Of a stretch of DNA of 64,000 nt, positions 4,612 through 36,115 are shown piece after piece. The notes beneath the pieces are model-generated. The model searched no databases. It had not been told where the DNA came from and saw only the letters and a program-made list of their open reading frames with translations. The stretch's first letter is position 1, and every line of letters starts with the position of its first letter. The position numbers were made by a program, and so were the translations under genes. Origin of the DNA: Escherichia coli (GTDB lineage Bacteria; Pseudomonadota; Gammaproteobacteria; Enterobacterales; Enterobacteriaceae); assembly GCF_048403405.1 (NCBI RefSeq), contig NZ_CP183129.1; one strand, 5' to 3'.

Positions 4612-5328
<717 letters not shown>

Positions 5329-5335
5329 TTAAATC

Positions 5336-5401
5336 TATCACCGCGAGGGATAAATATCTAACACCGTGCGTGTTGACTATTTTACCTCTAGCGGTGATAA
5401 T
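5336..5401. promoter_or_regulatory. OR3-OR2-OR1 operators with divergent promoters pRM and pR
   Basis: TATCACCGCGAGGGATA (5336..5352), TAACACCGTGCGTGTTG (5359..5375), TACCTCTAGCGGTGATA (5383..5399); pR -35 TTGACT and -10 GATAAT overlap OR2/OR1. Confidence 0.85.
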
Positions 5402-5416
5402 AGTTGCATGTACTAA

Positions 5417-5626
<210 letters not shown>

Positions 5627-5633
5627 ATAACCC

Positions 5634-5665
5634 CGCTCTTACACATTCCAGCCCTGAAAAAGGGC
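5634..5665 (+). promoter_or_regulatory. nutR (boxA CGCTCTTAC plus boxB GCCCTGAAAAAGGGC)
   Basis: Canonical lambda nutR immediately after cro. Confidence 0.8.
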
Positions 5666-5741
5666 ATTACCAGAAACAAATCTCTATGGTTTTGCGTTTC
5701 TTTGCGAAGCCAACTCTATCTAATCATTAAGGAAATTATCT

Positions 5742-6023
5742 ATGGGTACTATTGCAACTAAAAGCAAGAAAGCGGCTCGCATCGAGTCAGCCTTGCTGAA
5801 CAAACTGGCACTGATGGGGCAGAAGACATTCGCTCGAGCAATGGGGGTTCCTGAATATCAGGTAAGCAGATGGAAGAATGGTTTCTTCTCGCAGGTAAGC
5901 ATGATGCTGGCTGTTCTGGAATATGGAATCGAAGACGATGAAATGGCTGAATTGACTAAGCGGCTTGCCAATTACCTGACAAAAGAAAAAGCCCCGAAGA
6001 ACGGCGAATTCTTCGAGGCCTGA
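5742..6023 (+). CDS. cII: CII-like transcriptional activator (93 aa)
   Basis: [25 protein letters not shown]...QVSRWK...MLAVLEYG resembles lambda CII ([24 protein letters not shown]...QISRWK...LLAVLEWG) but is clearly divergent. Confidence 0.7.
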
Positions 6024-6057
6024 TGTAGAAAGACTGGATCAATCCACAGGAGTAATT

Positions 6058-6204
6058 ATGACAAAACAACTCAGTCCTTACCAGGACAAAATTCACAAAC
6101 ACATACTACGTGATCGCTTCCTGTCCAGCTTCAAGCAGCCTGGTCGATTCCTGGCTGAGTTGGAAAAAGTGAAGCTGATGCAGAAGGAGAAAGGTCATGA
6201 GTAA
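6058..6204 (+). CDS. Small ORF (48 aa) between cII and O
   Basis: ATG with AGGAG SD 6 nt upstream; stop overlaps the O start; under the ORF-track size cutoff. Confidence 0.35.
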
Positions 6205-7057
6205 TCTTGCAACCGTAACACATTTAAGGCCTTCACAACGGCCTGTGGAGCGTCGTGTGGCAGAAGTTGAAGATGGTTATACCCGTCTTGCAAATGCCCT
6301 GTATGAAGAGCTTATCGGCGCAGATTTAACGAAAAATCAGAGCAAGGTTGCCCACGCCATATGCCGTAAAACATACGGCTACGGTAAAAAGATGGATCGC
6401 ATTTCTGATAGTCAGTTAGCTCAAATTACCAGGCTGCCAAGACAGAAGGTAAACAAGGCCAAGAATGAGCTTATCGCGATGAAGGTTATCCTTCGCGAAG
6501 GCCAGCAAATCGGGCCTAACAAGAACATCGAAGAATGGCAAATCGAAGGGTGTCACTACTCTGGTGATAATGTCACTGCATTGGTGACAAAAAGTGTCAC
6601 CAAAACGGTGACAGCGCTGTCACCAAAACAGGGACACACAAAAGAAACTATTACAAAAGAAAAAAGAAATAATAAAAACACTATGTCCGAAAGTGTTCGG
6701 ACGGAGTGTGAAAAATCATCTGACCGTCACGAAGAAACCGACAAGGCATTCGAGGAAATATTCTGGTGTGCAGGCATGCGGAAAGCCGGGAAGAAAAACG
6801 CGGCTTCGGCATTCAGAACACAGTTCAGGGAATGGCGTAAAACTACCAGGGGTACGGCAAGCGAGTTTGCCACGATGCTGGCAGAAGACATCGCATGCAG
6901 GAATGGTAAGCAGTTCGGATTCGACAGGTTGTTACCATCGAGCTACCTGAACGGTCAACGCTGGAACGACGAGAAGCCAGAAACTATTCAACCACAATCC
7001 AAACCATCATCCGCAATCACCGTATCGAAAACTGGCTACGTGTTTTTCGACAGGTGA
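6197..7057 (+). CDS. O: Replication initiator, lambda O-like (286 aa)
   Basis: N-terminal half matches lambda O (DGYxRLxNxLxE...GADLTKxQxKV...KTYGxxKxMDRIxDSQLxxITxLP); contains the ori iterons internally. Confidence 0.8.
6551..6680. repeat. Origin iterons (repeated TGTCAC/GTGACA inverted-repeat units) plus adjacent A/T-rich tract inside the O gene
   Basis: GTGTCACTACTCTGGTGATAATGTCACTGCATTGGTGACAAAAAGTGTCACCAAAACGGTGACAGCGCTGTCACCAAAACAGGGACAC followed by AAAAGAAAAAAGAAATAATAAAAAC. Confidence 0.5.
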
Positions 7058-7164
7058 ACCATGAAATCAAAAATCAAATCGCTACTGGTCGCTGGTTATA
7101 ACCACGGCTGGTTAAGTATTTCGTTTGTCGATTTCTGGTTTAAAAATCTCAATCTGAGGGAATC

Positions 7165-9045
7165 ATGACACCAAGTGAACTTAGCGACCTGCTTTGGGCG
7201 CAGGTTGACAGGGTGGCTCCGCACCTGTTGCCAAACGGCAAGAAAGAGGGGCATGAGTGGGTTGCCGGTAACGTCAACGGTGACAAGGGAAACAGCCTTA
7301 AGGTCAACCTTAGCGGCAAGAAAAAATGGGCTGATTTCGCTGAGGGAGACGGCGGTGACATGCTTGATTTGTGGATGGCATGTCGTGGAATTAACCTGCA
7401 TCAGGCTATGCAGGAAGCGAAAGCCTTTCTCGGAATCAAGGATGACGATCACCATTTCGATGCCAAACGTGAGAAGAAATTCTCCAGACCTGATCGCAAG
7501 AAAATCGCCCGCTACGTTACCAGAACAGAATCCCATCTTGAGTACCTGCAATCGCGTGGCATATCGCCAGAAATCGTAAAGCGCTACGAGGTTGTCAGCG
7601 GCAAGGTGTGGAATGGAGAGCTGGAACTGGATGCTCTGGTGATTCCGTACAAACGCGATGGTGAGTTGTTGCAGGTCAAGCGAATCAGCACTGAGCGCCC
7701 GGACGGGAAGAAAGTCATTATGGCAGAAGGTGATTGCGAACCTTGTCTGTTCGGATGGCAGGCTCTGGACGCTGGCGTGAGGGCGGTTGTACTTTGCGAA
7801 GGCGAAATTGATTGTATGAGCTATGCGCAATACGGCATCTCGGCGTTATCCGTGCCGTTTGGTGGCGGGAAAGGCGCTAAACAGCAGTGGATTGAGTTTG
7901 AGTATCACAACCTCGACAGGTTTGAGGAAATATTCATCTCGATGGACGTTGATGATGTTGGTCGTGAAGCCGCAAGGGAAATCGCAAGCCGACTCGGTGA
8001 ACATCGTTGCCGTCTTGTTACTCTGCCGTACAAAGACATCAACGAATGCCTGATGAACGGTGTTACCGAGGATGAAATCTGGCAGTACATCGGCACGGCA
8101 TCCTACTTCGACCCTGAAGAACTCTACAGCGCGCGAGAGTTTTACCAGGACACTATCAACGCTTTCTACGGCAAGCAGCAGTATCTGTTTAATCCACCGT
8201 GGGAATCTCTGGTAGATAAATTCCAGTTCCGTGAGGCCGAGTTGACGCTGGTCAATGGTGTGAACGGTCACGGAAAAACGGAGGTTGTCGGGCATATGGC
8301 TCTTGAGGCAATGCGTCAGGGTGTGAAGACGTGCATCGCGTCACTTGAGCTGAAGCCTGGTATTCTCCTTAAGCGCCTTACCCGTCAGGCGACGTGCTGC
8401 AAGATGCCGCCAGTGCTGGAAATTGACTCTGCATTTAAATTTTATGACGAAAGACTTTGGGTGTTTGGCCTGACCGGAACGGCGAAAGCCGACAGGCTGA
8501 TCGAAATATTCGACTACGCTCGCCGCCGATACGGGATCCAGTTATTCATCATCGACAGCCTGATGAAATGTGGCATAGGCGACGATGACTATAACGGGCA
8601 GAAGGCGTTTGTTGACTCGATTTGCGACTTCAAAAACAAAACAAACTCCCACGTCATTCTCGTTACTCACTCGCGAAAAGGAGACAGCGAAGAAAAACCA
8701 ACCGGGAAAATGGACGTAAAAGGCTCTGGAGCGATAACAGACCTGACAGACAACCTTTTCATCATCTGGCGTAACAAGGCTCGCGAGAGAGCGTTACAGA
8801 GAGTTCAGAGTGGTGAAAAGATGTCAGAGAAGGACGAACAGCTACTGGCATCTCCGGCATCTGTTTTGATGCTTGAAAAACAACGTAACGGCGAAGGTTG
8901 GGAAGGTGGTGTCCCGTTGTTCCTTGACGAGCAATCGCACCAGTTCCTGCAACTTGAATCAGGATCGCCATATAGCTACATCGCCAATATGCCGAAATCG
9001 GAATATGACGAGGCGTGGAGACAGGAAAACGTGACGGAGTATTAA
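7165..9045 (+). CDS. Bifunctional DNA primase/helicase (T7 gp4-like; 626 aa) in place of lambda P
   Basis: Central acidic TOPRIM-like block (VVLCEGEIDCMSYAQ...ISMDVDDVGREAA) followed by Walker A GVNGHGKT and a RecA/DnaB-like C-terminal half; follows the O-like gene. Confidence 0.7.
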   Translation: MTPSELSDLLWAQVDRVAPHLLPNGKKEGHEWVAGNVNGDKGNSLKVNLSGKKKWADFAEGDGGDMLDLWMACRGINLHQAMQEAKAFLGIKDDDHHFDAKREKKFSRPDRKKIARYVTRTESHLEYLQSRGISPEIVKRYEVVSGKVWNGELELDALVIPYKRDGELLQVKRISTERPDGKKVIMAEGDCEPCLFGWQALDAGVRAVVLCEGEIDCMSYAQYGISALSVPFGGGKGAKQQWIEFEYHNLDRFEEIFISMDVDDVGREAAREIASRLGEHRCRLVTLPYKDINECLMNGVTEDEIWQYIGTASYFDPEELYSAREFYQDTINAFYGKQQYLFNPPWESLVDKFQFREAELTLVNGVNGHGKTEVVGHMALEAMRQGVKTCIASLELKPGILLKRLTRQATCCKMPPVLEIDSAFKFYDERLWVFGLTGTAKADRLIEIFDYARRRYGIQLFIIDSLMKCGIGDDDYNGQKAFVDSICDFKNKTNSHVILVTHSRKGDSEEKPTGKMDVKGSGAITDLTDNLFIIWRNKARERALQRVQSGEKMSEKDEQLLASPASVLMLEKQRNGEGWEGGVPLFLDEQSHQFLQLESGSPYSYIANMPKSEYDEAWRQENVTEY

Positions 9046-12970: not shown

Positions 12971-13045
12971 GGGTCAGTCGTATAAAGGTCATTACGGAAG
13001 GCTGTTAACCTTCTTATCGTGGTTCGAGTCCACGCTGTCCCGCCA
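12971..13045 (+). tRNA. tRNA-like gene, anticodon GUU (Asn) by manual fold; one T:T mismatch in the acceptor stem
   Basis: Manual cloverleaf: acceptor GGGTCAG/CTGTCCC, anticodon stem GAAGG/CCTTC with loop CTGTTAA, T-arm CGTGG-TTCGAGT-CCACG, discriminator G, encoded CCA. Confidence 0.45.
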
Positions 13046-13050
13046 AATAT

Positions 13051-13126
13051 GCTGGTTTAGCTCCAATGGTAGAGCAGTCGCCTTGTAAGCGAATGGGTAG
13101 CGGTTCAAGTCCGTTAACCAGCACCA
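13051..13126 (+). tRNA. tRNA-like gene, anticodon UGU (Thr) by manual fold
   Basis: Acceptor GCTGGTT/AACCAGC (perfect), D-arm GCTC-CAATGGTA-GAGC, anticodon loop CTTGTAA, T-loop TTCAAGT, encoded CCA. Confidence 0.55.
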
Positions 13127-33713: not shown

Positions 33714-34907
33714 TCACTCCACCTTTTCATCAAGCCAGTCCGCCCACCACTGCATCATTTCTCTGCGCTTATCGAGATACTGAGCATGGTTGTAAATTCC
33801 ACGTACAGATCCGCCGTTGGCATGTGCCAGTTGCACTTCAATGGCGTCGGCAGGCCATTCGTGCTCGTTCATAATCGTGCTGAATTCATGCCTGAATCCG
33901 TGACCGCTTTCCAGACCTTCATAGCCGATTTGTTTGATCACAAGTAGCACCGCGTTCTCGCAGATTGGCTTCTTCTTATCGTTGCGCCCGGAAAAAACAA
34001 ACTCTGATACTGGTTTAGTGATTGAGCTTAGTGTAGTGAGAAGTTCAACCACCTGGTCTGACATCGGGACAACATGAATTTTGCGTCCCTTCATCACACT
34101 GGCGTCGATGGTGATAATCCTGTTTTCAAAATCGACGTTCTTCCATAGCATGGAACGAAGCTCTTTTGTTCTTAGGGCTGTGTAGCGTAAAACTTTGGTC
34201 GCAATGAGCGATACGATACTTCCTGAAAATGTTGCAAGTGCTTTGTTGAATGCCGAGATCTGGTCGGCAGGTAAAAACGGGAAGTTCTTCTTGCGGTATC
34301 CCTTCATGGCGTCAGCAAGGTCAGGTGCCGGGTTATATTTAGCCCTACCAGTGACAATAGCGTAACGGAAAACCTCGCCGCATCTTCTGCGGGCTTTGTT
34401 GGCTCGCTCCATTGCACCGCGATCTTCAAATCTGCGGATTACTTCCAGCAGTTGCATCGGCTCAATATCCTGAATTTCAAGGCCGCCGATGATAGGTAAA
34501 ATGTCGTCATCAAACATTTTTGCAAGTTCAGTTGCATAGCCTACTGACCAGACTTGCTTCTTGTGCTCGTACCATTCCTTGTAAATCGCACTAAAGGAAT
34601 TGTTGTTAGACGAAGCCTTTTTCGCTTTTACCGGATCGATGCCAACCGAGATGTCTTTCCTCGCGGTCCATGCCTTATCCCTTGCCTCCTGCAAAGTCAT
34701 AAGCGGATATTTTCCGACGGTCAGGATTTTCTCCTTACCGTCAATCTTGTAGCGAAGCTGCCATACCTTTTTCCCTGATACAGGGACATAAAGGTACAGG
34801 CCATTACCATCGAGTAGGCGGTATGGTTTTTCTTTCGGCTTTGCTGCTTCAATCTGCTTAACGGTGAGCATGGGTAAAAATCCGGTGGGTAAAATTATTT
34901 TATCCAC
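33714..34907 (-). CDS. intS: Tyrosine integrase, P4-family (IntS-like; 397 aa, or 385 aa from MLTVKQ at 34871)
   Basis: N-terminus MLTVKQIEAAKPKEKPYRLLDGNGLYLYV typical of P4/IntS-type integrases; C-terminal HxxR...Y catalytic region; adjacent to the tRNA-Arg 3' end and transcribed away from it. Confidence 0.9.
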   Translation of the reverse strand: MDKIILPTGFLPMLTVKQIEAAKPKEKPYRLLDGNGLYLYVPVSGKKVWQLRYKIDGKEKILTVGKYPLMTLQEARDKAWTARKDISVGIDPVKAKKASSNNNSFSAIYKEWYEHKKQVWSVGYATELAKMFDDDILPIIGGLEIQDIEPMQLLEVIRRFEDRGAMERANKARRRCGEVFRYAIVTGRAKYNPAPDLADAMKGYRKKNFPFLPADQISAFNKALATFSGSIVSLIATKVLRYTALRTKELRSMLWKNVDFENRIITIDASVMKGRKIHVVPMSDQVVELLTTLSSITKPVSEFVFSGRNDKKKPICENAVLLVIKQIGYEGLESGHGFRHEFSTIMNEHEWPADAIEVQLAHANGGSVRGIYNHAQYLDKRREMMQWWADWLDEKVE

Positions 34908-35032
34908 TTTTTACCCGTCATGGAGTGCGGCTGTCAACGATCTGACGCGAACCATTACGAACTGTTAATCTACGGAAGGCTTGATATTCAGGGGATTTTG
35001 CGGACTGGTGCGGATGGGAGCGAACTGATAAA

Positions 35033-35107
35033 TGGTGTCCCCTGCAGGAATCGAACCTGCAATTAGCCCTTAGGAGGAGCTCGTTATATCCATTTAACTA
35101 AGAGGAC
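35033..35107 (-). tRNA. argW: tRNA-Arg (anticodon CCU), argW; prophage attachment site
   Basis: Reverse complement reads GTCCTCTTAGTTAAATGGATATAACGAGCTCCTCCTAAGGGCTAATTGCAGGTTCGATTCCTGCAGGGGACACCA (75 nt, CCT anticodon loop, TTCGATT T-loop, CCA end). Confidence 0.85.
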
Positions 35108-35182: not shown

Positions 35183-36115
35183 TTATACCGGGTTTTTATC
35201 ATTTTTCTTAATGTTTTCCGCTCGTTCTGCTTTTTGGCGTGCTTCTGCTTTGCGCTTGTTGCTCATGTCGTTACGGATCTGTGCATGACTCATTAACGCG
35301 AAGATAAAGGTGCCGCCGCAGATGTTCCCCGCTAAAGTAGGTAGTGCGAAGGGCCAGATGAAATCGCTCCAGTGCAGCGTGCCGTTAAACACCAGATAGA
35401 GGATTTCTACAGAACCGACAACGATGTGGGTGGTGTCACCCAGGGCAATAAGCCAGGTCATCAATATAATCACCACAATCTTTGCCGCACCCGCTGCAGG
35501 AAACATCCAAACCATAGTGGCGATCAGCCAGCCGGAAATGATCGCGTTGGCAAACATCTCGCTGGGGGTGTTCTTCATCACATCCATGCCGATTTTGACA
35601 AATGCATCGCGAGTTTCTTCATTGAAGATTGGCATATATTCAAATGCCCACGCCGCAATACCTGTCCCGAGAATATTACCCAGCAGCACGACGCCCCATA
35701 ACCGCATGAGTAAGCCAACGTTGCTCATTGTCGGTTTTTGCATGACGGGTAGTACCGCAGTCACGGTGTTTTCGGTAAATAATTGCTGGCGGGCCATAAT
35801 GACGATAATAAAACCAAAGGTATAACCGAGATTCTCCAGCAAGAAGCTGCCCGGCACACCTTCCAGTTCGACATGAAATATCCCTTTTGCCAGTAATGAA
35901 GCGCCCATCGACAGACCCGCCGCAATGGCTGACCACAGTAGTGCCATTGCGTCGCGTTCCAGCTCTTTTTCACCATCCTGGCGGATATGCTCATGAATTG
36001 CCATCGCCCGGGAGGGGAGTCGGTCTTCATCTATTTCTATTTTTTTGCCGCGCTCTTTTTCTTCGCTCTCAACTTCAATTTCGTCGCTGTGTTGATCAAT
36101 TTTGTCGTTGTCCAT
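35183..36115 (-). CDS. yfdC: Inner-membrane formate/nitrite-transporter-family protein YfdC (310 aa)
   Basis: Multi-TM protein with acidic N-terminal extension; conserved position next to argW. Confidence 0.8.
   Translation of the reverse strand: MDNDKIDQHSDEIEVESEEKERGKKIEIDEDRLPSRAMAIHEHIRQDGEKELERDAMALLWSAIAAGLSMGASLLAKGIFHVELEGVPGSFLLENLGYTFGFIIVIMARQQLFTENTVTAVLPVMQKPTMSNVGLLMRLWGVVLLGNILGTGIAAWAFEYMPIFNEETRDAFVKIGMDVMKNTPSEMFANAIISGWLIATMVWMFPAAGAAKIVVIILMTWLIALGDTTHIVVGSVEILYLVFNGTLHWSDFIWPFALPTLAGNICGGTFIFALMSHAQIRNDMSNKRKAEARQKAERAENIKKNDKNPV

Follow-up and report, generated by a model that had tools for sequence, protein, structure and literature searches.

An O-type initiator followed by a T7 gp4-like primase-helicase in the replication module of an Escherichia coli prophage

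The stretch of Escherichia coli DNA analysed here (64,000 nucleotides of contig NZ_CP183129.1, assembly GCF_048403405.1; hereafter referred to as the window) contains a set of phage replication genes located behind a control region that consists of cI (4612-5325, − strand), cro (5426-5626, with a product 100% identical to lambda Cro), cII (5742-6023) and a DUF2740 gene (6058-6204). This region (4612-6204) would drive the replication module, which is made up of three genes on the + strand: an O-type replication initiator of 286 aa (6197-7057), a conserved gene of 35 aa (7061-7168) and a bifunctional primase-helicase of 626 aa (7165-9045). Between cro and Q, the + strand has just three ORFs of more than 140 aa, namely the O-like gene, the 626-aa gene and Q itself, whilst the larger ORFs of the left arm are RecT, Gp157, DUF2528 and N.

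The initiator comprises an N-terminal origin-binding domain, a helical domain in its C-terminal half and, at its end, a flexible tail. The N-terminal domain is of the winged-helix type seen in the lambda O family: it scores 128.8 bits with Phage_rep_O in Pfam (PF04492; aa 20-114, E 1.1e-37; cut-off 28.7) and 105.4 bits with TIGR01610 phage_O_Nterm (E 1.6e-30; cut-off 45.5), and residues 1-157 are 49% identical to residues 1-155 of lambda O by BLASTP. As in the lambda O family, the origin is located inside the initiator gene, downstream of the promoter region on the cro side, and consists of dyad-symmetric iterons followed by an A/T-rich stretch. The four 19-bp iterons (TGTCAC-N7-GTGACA; 6551-6636, with starts at 6551, 6571, 6595 and 6618) have a spacing of 20/24/23 bp, the same as that of the four iterons of lambda, and are offset from the start of the gene by 354-421, compared with 348-415 in lambda. 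When 2 mismatches are allowed, about 2.1 occurrences of the iteron pattern are expected in the whole 64-kb window, and the clustering of four copies in 86 bp, at the position equivalent to that in lambda, is not due to chance. Adjacent to the iterons is an A-rich stretch of 44 bp (6637-6680; 82% A+T, 70% A on the + strand), presumed to be the DNA-unwinding element, which is nearly identical to those of lambda and ES18. On its right side, an inverted repeat with 14-nt arms and a 4-nt gap (6678-6709) sits where lambda has its ori palindrome; ES18 has the same repeat, whereas lambda does not. The O-like gene with iterons described in the initial annotation is therefore borne out by both the domain match and the lambda spacing of the iterons.

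The second half of the initiator gene (6673-7057, + strand) is, in other phages, inherited with the primase-helicase. Twelve megablast matches (H9-H20) all start at query position 974, which corresponds to position 6673 of the window, and the mosaic joint is at about this point, just after the origin. In two alignments, three unrelated N-domains are found joined to a C-half of the window type. A similar picture is seen in IMG/VR, where 71 of the 80 loci with a 99-100% identical primase-helicase encode a full-length initiator with the C-domain core of the window, joined to the window-type O N-domain in 50 cases and to an HTH_36 N-domain in the other 21, and where a recognisable copy of the 35-aa gene is present in 74 of the 80 close loci. 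The initiator C-half is inherited as a unit with the 35-aa gene and the primase-helicase, and it is the N-domains and their iterons that are exchanged. Matches to the C-domains in protein databases are mostly partial, short proteins without genomic context.

In the AlphaFold2 model, the C-terminal domain of the initiator forms a helical bundle at aa ~180-260 (pLDDT 83-92). No similarity to lambda O was found beyond residue 157 by BLASTP, and an hhalign comparison of the small family alignments of the two C-domains gave a probability of 0.8% for remote homology, so that the C-domains of the window initiator and of lambda O are treated as unrelated. The initial annotation had proposed a different O partner interface, which holds insofar as the C-domain is unlike that of lambda, but the C-domain as a whole was rejected as an interface specific to the primase-helicase: its core is also present in initiators that precede a P-like loader in Vibrio phages PVA1 and D65 and a DnaC-like loader in Pseudomonas phage Skulduggery. 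The core alone therefore does not identify the partner and, as it is not specific to the primase-helicase, any partner-specific interface is more likely to involve the initiator tail or the product of the 35-aa gene, if not both.

The tail (aa 261-286; 6977-7054, + strand) is predicted to be disordered, with a pLDDT of about 50. It is conserved in homologues that are 58-77% identical, in which the linker before it varies, and is kept in the initiators of S107 and L120, whose C-domain is otherwise different; it can be regarded as a candidate docking peptide for the primase-helicase. The upstream gene carries the label ‘primosomal protein I (DnaT)’ in S107, Fraca and phPA-G, a label that was not retained, given that Pfam searches returned only HTH_36, DUF1376 or nothing, and no DnaT domain.

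The 35-aa gene (7061-7168, + strand; MKSKIKSLLVAGYNHGWLSISFVDFWFKNLNLRES) is located between the initiator and the primase-helicase, and its stop codon overlaps the start codon of the primase-helicase gene (ATGA). Its product matches phrog_21848 (E 4.4e-26) and has counterparts in gp60 of ES18 and gp51 of epsilon34. The gene is intact in ES18, phi24B, mEp043, S107, epsilon34 and phiKp_30, as well as in the distant Fraca, and is recognisable down to about 60% identity of the primase-helicase. Between the alleles of the window and phi24B, 25 of the 108 nucleotides differ, with a pS of 0.45 against a pN of 0.17, and in the same comparison the other reading frames of the region contain stops.

The region 7165-9045 on the + strand is exactly one ORF of 626 aa, with the stop codon within these coordinates. 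ORFs on the − strand that overlap it (for example 7096-7830, 244 aa) were set aside as non-coding shadows, as homology backs the + frame. Domain, sequence and fold matches all point to the T7 gp4/Twinkle architecture. In Pfam, Toprim_2 (aa 209-296, E 3e-12) and AAA_25 (aa 355-507, E 1.3e-6) match above their cut-offs and DnaB_C (aa 355-594, E 3.3e-5) matches just below it, at 23.8 bits against 27, whilst no match to the DnaB N-terminal domain was found, which places the protein outside the DnaB family. PHROG 239 ‘DNA primase/helicase’ covers nearly the entire protein (aa 2-622, E 6.5e-171). The best sequence match in the PDB is T7 gp4 (5ikn_D, E 3.3e-23, aa 192-539), with Twinkle second, and the AlphaFold2 model (mean pLDDT 93.9) likewise has T7 gp4 as its top Foldseek match (5ikn_J, E 1.8e-26, TM-score of 0.73 when normalised to the target).

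The conservation of the catalytic motifs was scored on 81 representatives of the primase-helicase family, which comprises 846 cluster representatives at E<=1e-30. The TOPRIM catalytic core (7789-8052, + strand; aa 209-296), delineated by Toprim_2 and the alignment with T7 gp4, contains six acidic residues (E212, E214, D216, D261, D263 and D291) that are 91-98% conserved; four of these, E212, D261, D263 and D291, align residue by residue with the EGEID, DMD and KD motifs of T7 gp4 and are 97-98% conserved. The SF4 (RecA-fold) helicase domain (8227-8946, + strand; aa 355-594), delineated by AAA_25, DnaB_C and the alignment with the T7 gp4 helicase, contains the Walker A motif GVNGHGKT (8257-8280, + strand; G365-T372), the Walker B residue D464, H502 and the arginine finger R536, with K371, D464 and H502 being 100% and R536 96% conserved. 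All of these TOPRIM and helicase residues are present in the window protein and each is 91-100% conserved in the family, whereas the C-terminal tail is not conserved. The domain search, which had been named beforehand as a possible refutation of the initial annotation of a 626-aa protein with a TOPRIM block and a Walker A helicase half, found both primase and helicase domains. Taken together, sequence and model confirm the predicted product as the fusion of a DnaG-type primase with an SF4 helicase, in which the catalytic motifs are intact. A gp4-type enzyme of this kind would form a hexameric ring with helicase and primase activities.

The N-terminal domain (aa 1-92; 7165-7440, + strand) lies where DnaG and gp4 have their zinc-binding domain, and positions 27-155 of TIGR01391 dnaG match aa 26-143 of the protein. 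In T7 gp4 and DnaG, the zinc domain serves template recognition, and in T7 gp4 it is required for template-directed primer synthesis. No conserved Cys/His tetrad was found in the first 100 residues of either the window protein or the 81 family representatives, and since the N-terminal domain is without zinc ligands, primase activity is not guaranteed. The lack of the tetrad, the established requirement for the zinc domain in T7 gp4 and the position of Twinkle as the second-best structural and sequence relative would all fit a protein that is a helicase only, the primase half having become inactive through a degenerate zinc domain, as in animal Twinkle, and primers being supplied by host DnaG or by transcripts. 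Such a loss of priming is nevertheless rather unlikely. The TOPRIM residues that bind metal show 91-98% conservation in the family, and the N-terminal domain is both strongly conserved (G35, G39, G42, S44, W55, D57, F58, G64, D65 and L69 in at least 72 of the 81 sequences) and confidently modelled (pLDDT of 86-97 per 10-residue block), which is not expected of a decaying domain. In addition, host DnaG is recruited via the N-terminal domain of DnaB, and the 626-aa protein is without this domain, with only DnaB_C being matched, and weakly.

Lambda O binds P in order to borrow host DnaB. In the whole 64-kb window, no relatives of lambda P or Ren were found (tblastn, best E 0.65); the position of P is taken by the primase-helicase and the module does not have a loader of the lambda O/P type, in agreement with the earlier proposal that a gp4-like protein replaces P. 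A P homologue elsewhere in the prophage had been named beforehand as the other possible refutation of that proposal, and it was not found. Among the early-region ORFs, no replication gene was detected beyond those of the module, and no second helicase-related, DnaC-like or DnaB-like gene was detected in the prophage. No polymerase gene was found among the prophage ORFs examined, which include those of the early region and some of the late region.

Initiation at the origin could in principle still proceed through host DnaB, recruited either directly by the initiator or by a host loader, with the primase-helicase serving a later or accessory role in a rolling-circle stage, in restart or in escape from defence. 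The helical core of the C-domain is indeed common to initiators preceding loaders of the P-like or DnaC-like kind, whose target is host DnaB, and O-type initiators evidently can work without a phage partner, as an O homologue alone, with no helicase or loader, is reported for 34 of 314 lambdoid phages (PMC12315714). However, the primase-helicase is always found in the P slot, its translation is linked to that of the 35-aa gene, and it is inherited along with the initiator C-half across the 80 close loci. As no other helicase-related gene was detected in the prophage either, an accessory role is distinctly improbable.

It is also conceivable that the module is a decaying remnant in a defective prophage and is no longer functional. 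Many E. coli prophages are defective, but nothing specific to this locus points that way and the idea is barely credible here: the three ORFs are intact, with 98.6% DNA identity to the plaque-forming phage mEp043, and the window contains a full P22-like set of late-region ORFs, in which terminase, portal, scaffold and coat were assigned from the annotated MS1718 prophage and the tailspike from position and size only, together with an integrase that adjoins tRNA-Arg.

The preferred reading, with a probability of about 0.8, is that the locus serves DNA replication in a P22-like lambdoid prophage and is a module of the ES18/mEp043/Sf101/epsilon34/phi24B type, which carries its own primase-helicase in place of the host DnaB borrowed through P. 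The initiator would oligomerise on the iterons and open the A-rich stretch, like lambda O, and would then recruit the ring helicase encoded by the phage to the opened DNA, the most plausible link being the flexible tail of the initiator, the 35-aa protein, or both. The phage enzyme would both unwind the fork and make the lagging-strand primers. As a single enzyme would unwind and prime, it is proposed that host DnaB, DnaC and DnaG, as well as the P-release step by DnaK/DnaJ/GrpE, would not be needed, and that host DNA polymerase III would still be required because there is no polymerase gene among the prophage ORFs examined. From the gene content, it is reasonable to infer that replication is independent of host DnaB and DnaG. 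A literature search returned no experiment showing DnaB, DnaG or chaperone independence for any phage with this module, and the trio of initiator, 35-aa gene and primase-helicase is present and annotated in viable, sequenced phages.

The coupling between initiator and helicase may be sketched further, although only tentatively. One possibility is a three-part device, in which an interchangeable origin-binding domain would be linked to the helicase by the tail peptide and the 35-aa protein rather than by the bulk of the C-domain, and in which the fused primase would work without a zinc finger. The idea draws on sequence conservation and on three classes of initiator tail, which are otherwise unrelated but have an x-V-F-hydrophobic motif in common.

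The combination of an O-type initiator with a primase-helicase is real but already known, from ES18, mEp043, Sf101 and several Shiga-toxin phages. The GenBank record of ES18 (AY736146, 2005) annotates gp59 as ‘similar to phage lambda gpO’, with an internal rep_origin ‘similar to lambda ori’, and gp61 as ‘putative primase/helicase; similar to phage T7 gene 4’. A 2023 paper already puts the pairing in words, and the Stx-phage replication type ‘Eru5’ consists of the same primase-helicase with a helix-turn-helix initiator (PMC8951638). The 3.4 kb module matches those of mEp043 and Sf101 at 98.5-98.6% DNA identity (98.6% for mEp043) and is present in 297 of 5,426 complete E. coli genomes, or about 5%.

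The order of the initiator (C-half and tail), the phrog_21848 gene and the phrog_239 primase-helicase is that of the ES18/mEp043 type. ES18, mEp043, Sf101, epsilon34, SEN22 and vB_SosS_Oslo have the three genes in the same order as the window, with primase-helicases that are 93-99% identical, and the initiator C-half, the tail and the 35-aa gene of the ES18-group modules are as in the window. The modules differ in their N-domains: ES18 and epsilon34 have a lambda-identical N-domain and lambda-type iterons (TCCCTC…GAGGGA), whereas the window, mEp043 and Sf101 have an N-domain that is 49% identical to that type and TGTCAC…GTGACA iterons. In the Eru5 Stx phages (Stx2a_F403, phi24B and Min27), the primase-helicase gene has 97% DNA identity and the initiator C-half and 35-aa gene are again as in the window, but the initiator N-domain is an HTH_36 helix-turn-helix unrelated to that of the window, and the primase-helicase is 968 aa long, with a 342-aa intein in the Walker A loop that is absent from the window copy.

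The finding itself matters little, as the module is already in GenBank and in print. The details added to it are the position of the joint, the distribution of the C-domain, the linkage of the tail and the 35-aa gene, the zinc-less N-domain and the intein of the Stx allele. In practical terms, it illustrates that ‘lambdoid’ replication need not be of the O/P kind. For phages that have this module, Eru5-type Stx2a phages among them, replication without host DnaB, DnaC, DnaG and DnaK/DnaJ/GrpE is predicted, and such host independence could affect induction dynamics and host range.

In comparison with known systems, the module resembles that of lambda in the homologous N-terminal domain of the initiator, the 20/24/23 bp spacing of the iterons, the near-identical A-rich stretch, the flanking palindrome and the place after cII. 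In contrast, lambda O has a P-binding C-terminal domain, whilst the window has an unrelated C-domain, no P and no Ren, and a phage helicase-primase that appears to stand in for the lambda-style loading of host DnaB. P22, through gene 18 and gene 12, likewise combines a lambdoid initiator with a replicative helicase of its own and does not need to borrow host DnaB. However, P22 gp12 is of the DnaB type and has no primase domain, whereas the window protein is of the gp4 type, with a fused primase; the types of lambdoid replication module have been contrasted previously (PMC10307801). T7 gp4 and mitochondrial Twinkle have the same domain order as the window protein (N-terminal domain, DnaG-type RNA-polymerase/TOPRIM domain, linker and SF4 helicase) and the same catalytic motifs, but the 626-aa protein is only about 20-26% identical to them and is without zinc ligands in its N-terminal domain. 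In T7, the origin is transcription-primed. Unlike T7, where gp4 has a partner polymerase, no such gene is present among the prophage ORFs examined, and the 626-aa protein is instead paired with an iteron-binding initiator.

The gene at 7165-9045 (+) is a single open reading frame, and the TOPRIM and RecA/DnaB-like helicase halves that the initial annotation recognised in its 626-aa product were borne out by Pfam, PHROGs, PDB and Foldseek comparisons. Pfam places Toprim_2 at aa 209-296 (E 3e-12) and a RecA-type ATPase, matching AAA_25, at aa 355-507, with a DnaB_C match slightly below threshold at aa 355-594, and phrog_239 (‘DNA primase/helicase’) covers the whole protein (E 6.5e-171). T7 gp4 is the top PDB sequence match (aa 192-539, E 3.3e-23), followed by Twinkle, and residue alignment shows that EGEID, DxD and KD-NE of gp4 are all retained, as are the motifs of the helicase. 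A dead remnant is very improbable. The AlphaFold2 model, computed from an alignment of 81 diverse relatives, has a mean pLDDT of 93.9; its first Foldseek match is T7 gp4 (E 1.8e-26, target-normalised TM-score 0.73), with Twinkle and DnaB after it. The family is sizeable: 8,314 cluster representatives reach E<=1e-3, and 846 of them E<=1e-30.

The N-terminal half also matches the zinc-binding and RNA-polymerase domains of Aquifex DnaG in Foldseek. Residues 26-143 align with the DnaG zinc ribbon and its adjoining part, and this domain is modelled with high confidence. Neither the window protein nor any of the 81 relatives carries a Cys/His ligand set here, and a glycine-rich signature is conserved in its place. 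An enzyme that acts as a helicase only is conceivable but unlikely: since the catalytic TOPRIM residues are 91-98% conserved among the relatives, a predicted active primase is more likely than a Twinkle-like relic.

The initiator gene (6197-7057, +) encodes a 286-aa Phage_rep_O protein (E 1.1e-37) that shares 49% identity with lambda O over aa 1-157 and no similarity to it beyond aa 157. Inside the gene lie four 19-bp dyad-symmetric repeats, TGTCAC-N7-GTGACA, at 6551, 6571, 6595 and 6618, with a spacing (20/24/23 bp) exactly that of the four annotated lambda iterons and an equivalent in-gene offset, followed by a 44-bp stretch of 82% A+T and an inverted repeat. In alignments, the iteron arms differ between the window, lambda and ES18, the end of iteron 4 and the A-rich stretch are near-identical in all three, and to the right of this stretch the window tracks ES18, unlike lambda. 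The predicted origin has the anatomy of lambda ori but a recognition sequence that differs from lambda's. Within the first part of the primase-helicase gene, ~650 bp rightward of the origin, GGTAACGTCAACGGTGACA (7267-7285) resembles an iteron more weakly, with two mismatches; it would be a fifth copy but may mean nothing, since chance alone would give about two such matches in the window.

The proposal that the primase-helicase stands in place of lambda P also held, as tblastn of the 64-kb window matched neither P (best E 0.65) nor Ren (best E 0.48). The only sizeable plus-strand ORFs between cro and Q are the initiator, the primase-helicase and Q itself, the larger left-arm ORFs are RecT, Gp157, DUF2528 and N, and the annotation of the closely related E. 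coli MS1718 prophage lists no further replication gene. Initiation that still depends on host DnaB, with the primase-helicase as an accessory, is quite improbable.

Many phage matches to the 3.4-kb module used as query start at query position 974 (6673), right after the A-rich stretch, and alignments show one C-half carrying three different N-terminal DNA-binding domains: the window type, a lambda-identical type (ES18, epsilon34) and HTH_36 (phi24B, Stx2a). The window type occurs in 50 of 80 IMG/VR loci whose primase-helicase is 99-100% identical, and HTH_36 in 21 of them; every initiator ORF recovered beside the 35-aa gene, full-length or truncated, has the same C-domain core and tail. This common core and tail across exchanged N-domains argues that the O C-half, the small gene and the primase-helicase are a co-inherited unit, and that the N-domain is swapped separately, together with its iterons; domain shuffling is a recognised general phenomenon in phage initiators (PMC10684548).

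The core also occurs in Vibrio phages PVA1 and D65, beside a weakly matching P-like loader (phrog_109, E about 2-3e-4; the D65 loader additionally matches phrog_33198, a family matched by lambda P too), and in Pseudomonas phage Skulduggery, beside a DnaC/IstB-like one, and is therefore not partner-specific. The genes after the two Vibrio initiators (PVA1 L010:3754-4395, left unannotated in a sparsely annotated RefSeq record, and D65 L011:3844-4365) are mutual homologues (E 3e-8). The end of the tail (aa 261-286) is unchanged in the S107 and L120 initiators despite an otherwise different C-domain, and is conserved in homologues 58-77% identical, in which the preceding linker varies. Other tails, beside 58-60% identical primase-helicases, read …AEVFISQ… and …NQVFVDY…, with only x-V-F-hydrophobic in common. 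Because it persists across differing C-domains, the tail is a candidate docking peptide, though this is a hypothesis drawn from only three tail classes.

The small, 35-aa gene (7061-7168; product MKSKIKSLLVAGYNHGWLSISFVDFWFKNLNLRES) is preceded by AGGTG, and its stop overlaps the primase-helicase start codon (ATGA). It belongs to phrog_21848 (E 4.4e-26), appears in the ES18 and epsilon34 annotations as gp60 and gp51, respectively, and is intact in every phage examined, including the distant Fraca; the other frames of the segment contain stops. The two main alleles differ at 25 of 108 nucleotides (pS 0.45 versus pN 0.17). The gene is traceable to ~60% primase-helicase identity and absent in the 36-42% clade, where the initiator's own stop codon overlaps the start of the helicase gene. 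In phi24B (L002:2889-2996) 23% of the small gene's nucleotides differ from the window copy, against only ~4% synonymous-site difference in the flanking initiator C-half and primase-helicase, so the small gene is itself a mosaic segment that is exchanged on its own and has two main alleles.

Within the reach of sequence evidence, the interpretation first placed on this locus, host-helicase-independent initiation, is supported; what is directly observed is the gene content, the motifs, the anatomy of the origin and the co-inheritance. In the most likely mechanism, the initiator would assemble on the iterons, open the A-rich stretch and tether the phage ring helicase-primase via its tail and/or the small protein; the helicase-primase would then load itself, unwind the fork and prime. 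Such a route would need neither DnaB, DnaC and DnaG nor the chaperones on which lambda depends for the release of P, with host polymerase III presumably still used.

Stx phages (phi24B ‘P’, L002:2996-5902) and Klebsiella phage phiKp_30 (L008:782-3688) carry 968-aa primase-helicase alleles with a 342-aa in-frame insertion inside the Walker A loop (GHGK|ACPL…THN|TEVV), an intein because it matches LAGLIDADG_3 (E 1.6e-8) and Hint (E 9e-6); the window allele, in contrast, is intein-free. Several family representatives of ~900-1050 aa match the query in two separate stretches, 3 of 11 breaking at residue 372. The primase-helicase gene is also a target for another type of selfish insertion, a 164-aa HNH_3 and NUMOD4 homing-endonuclease gene directly upstream of it (as in IMG/VR locus L065; 5 of 80 loci), which takes the small gene's usual site in five otherwise near-identical loci.

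The prophage has the immunity region of lambda itself (4612-5626): its Cro matches lambda Cro at 100% identity, and the 237-aa cI probably resembles lambda cI closely. Comparison with the annotated MS1718 prophage shows a P22-like late region (terminase, portal, scaffold, coat), with a putative tailspike assigned solely by its position and size. Lambda immunity, P22 morphology and ES18 replication are thus combined in one mosaic prophage. At its right end, after the late-region ORFs, a tyrosine integrase gene (33714-34907, -) abuts tRNA-Arg(CCT) (35033-35107, -), next to which lies a formate/nitrite-transporter-family gene (35183-36115), and the early-left genes extend beyond the window's left end; 33714-35107 appears to be the argW attachment site, and the prophage would have its integrase gene at one end and its excision genes at the other. 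The Q antiterminator gene is closely followed by genes for tRNA-Asn(GTT) and tRNA-Thr(TGT) (12971-13126), an arrangement shared with the MS1718 prophage.

Literature searches found no published test of the module's host-factor requirements. The module itself is already known and has been annotated since 2005: the ES18 record describes gp59 as ‘similar to phage lambda gpO’, labels an internal origin ‘similar to lambda ori’ and calls gp61 ‘putative primase/helicase; similar to phage T7 gene 4’. Phage mEp043 shares the 3.4-kb stretch at 98.6% identity and Sf101 at 98.5%; the stretch recurs in ES18, epsilon34, SEN22, Oslo, phi24B, Min27 and Stx2a phages, and is present in 297 of 5,426 complete E. 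coli genomes. When matched to this stretch, the Stx-phage replication type ‘Eru5’ (reference Stx2a_F403; PMC8951638) proves to be the version of the module with a helix-turn-helix initiator.
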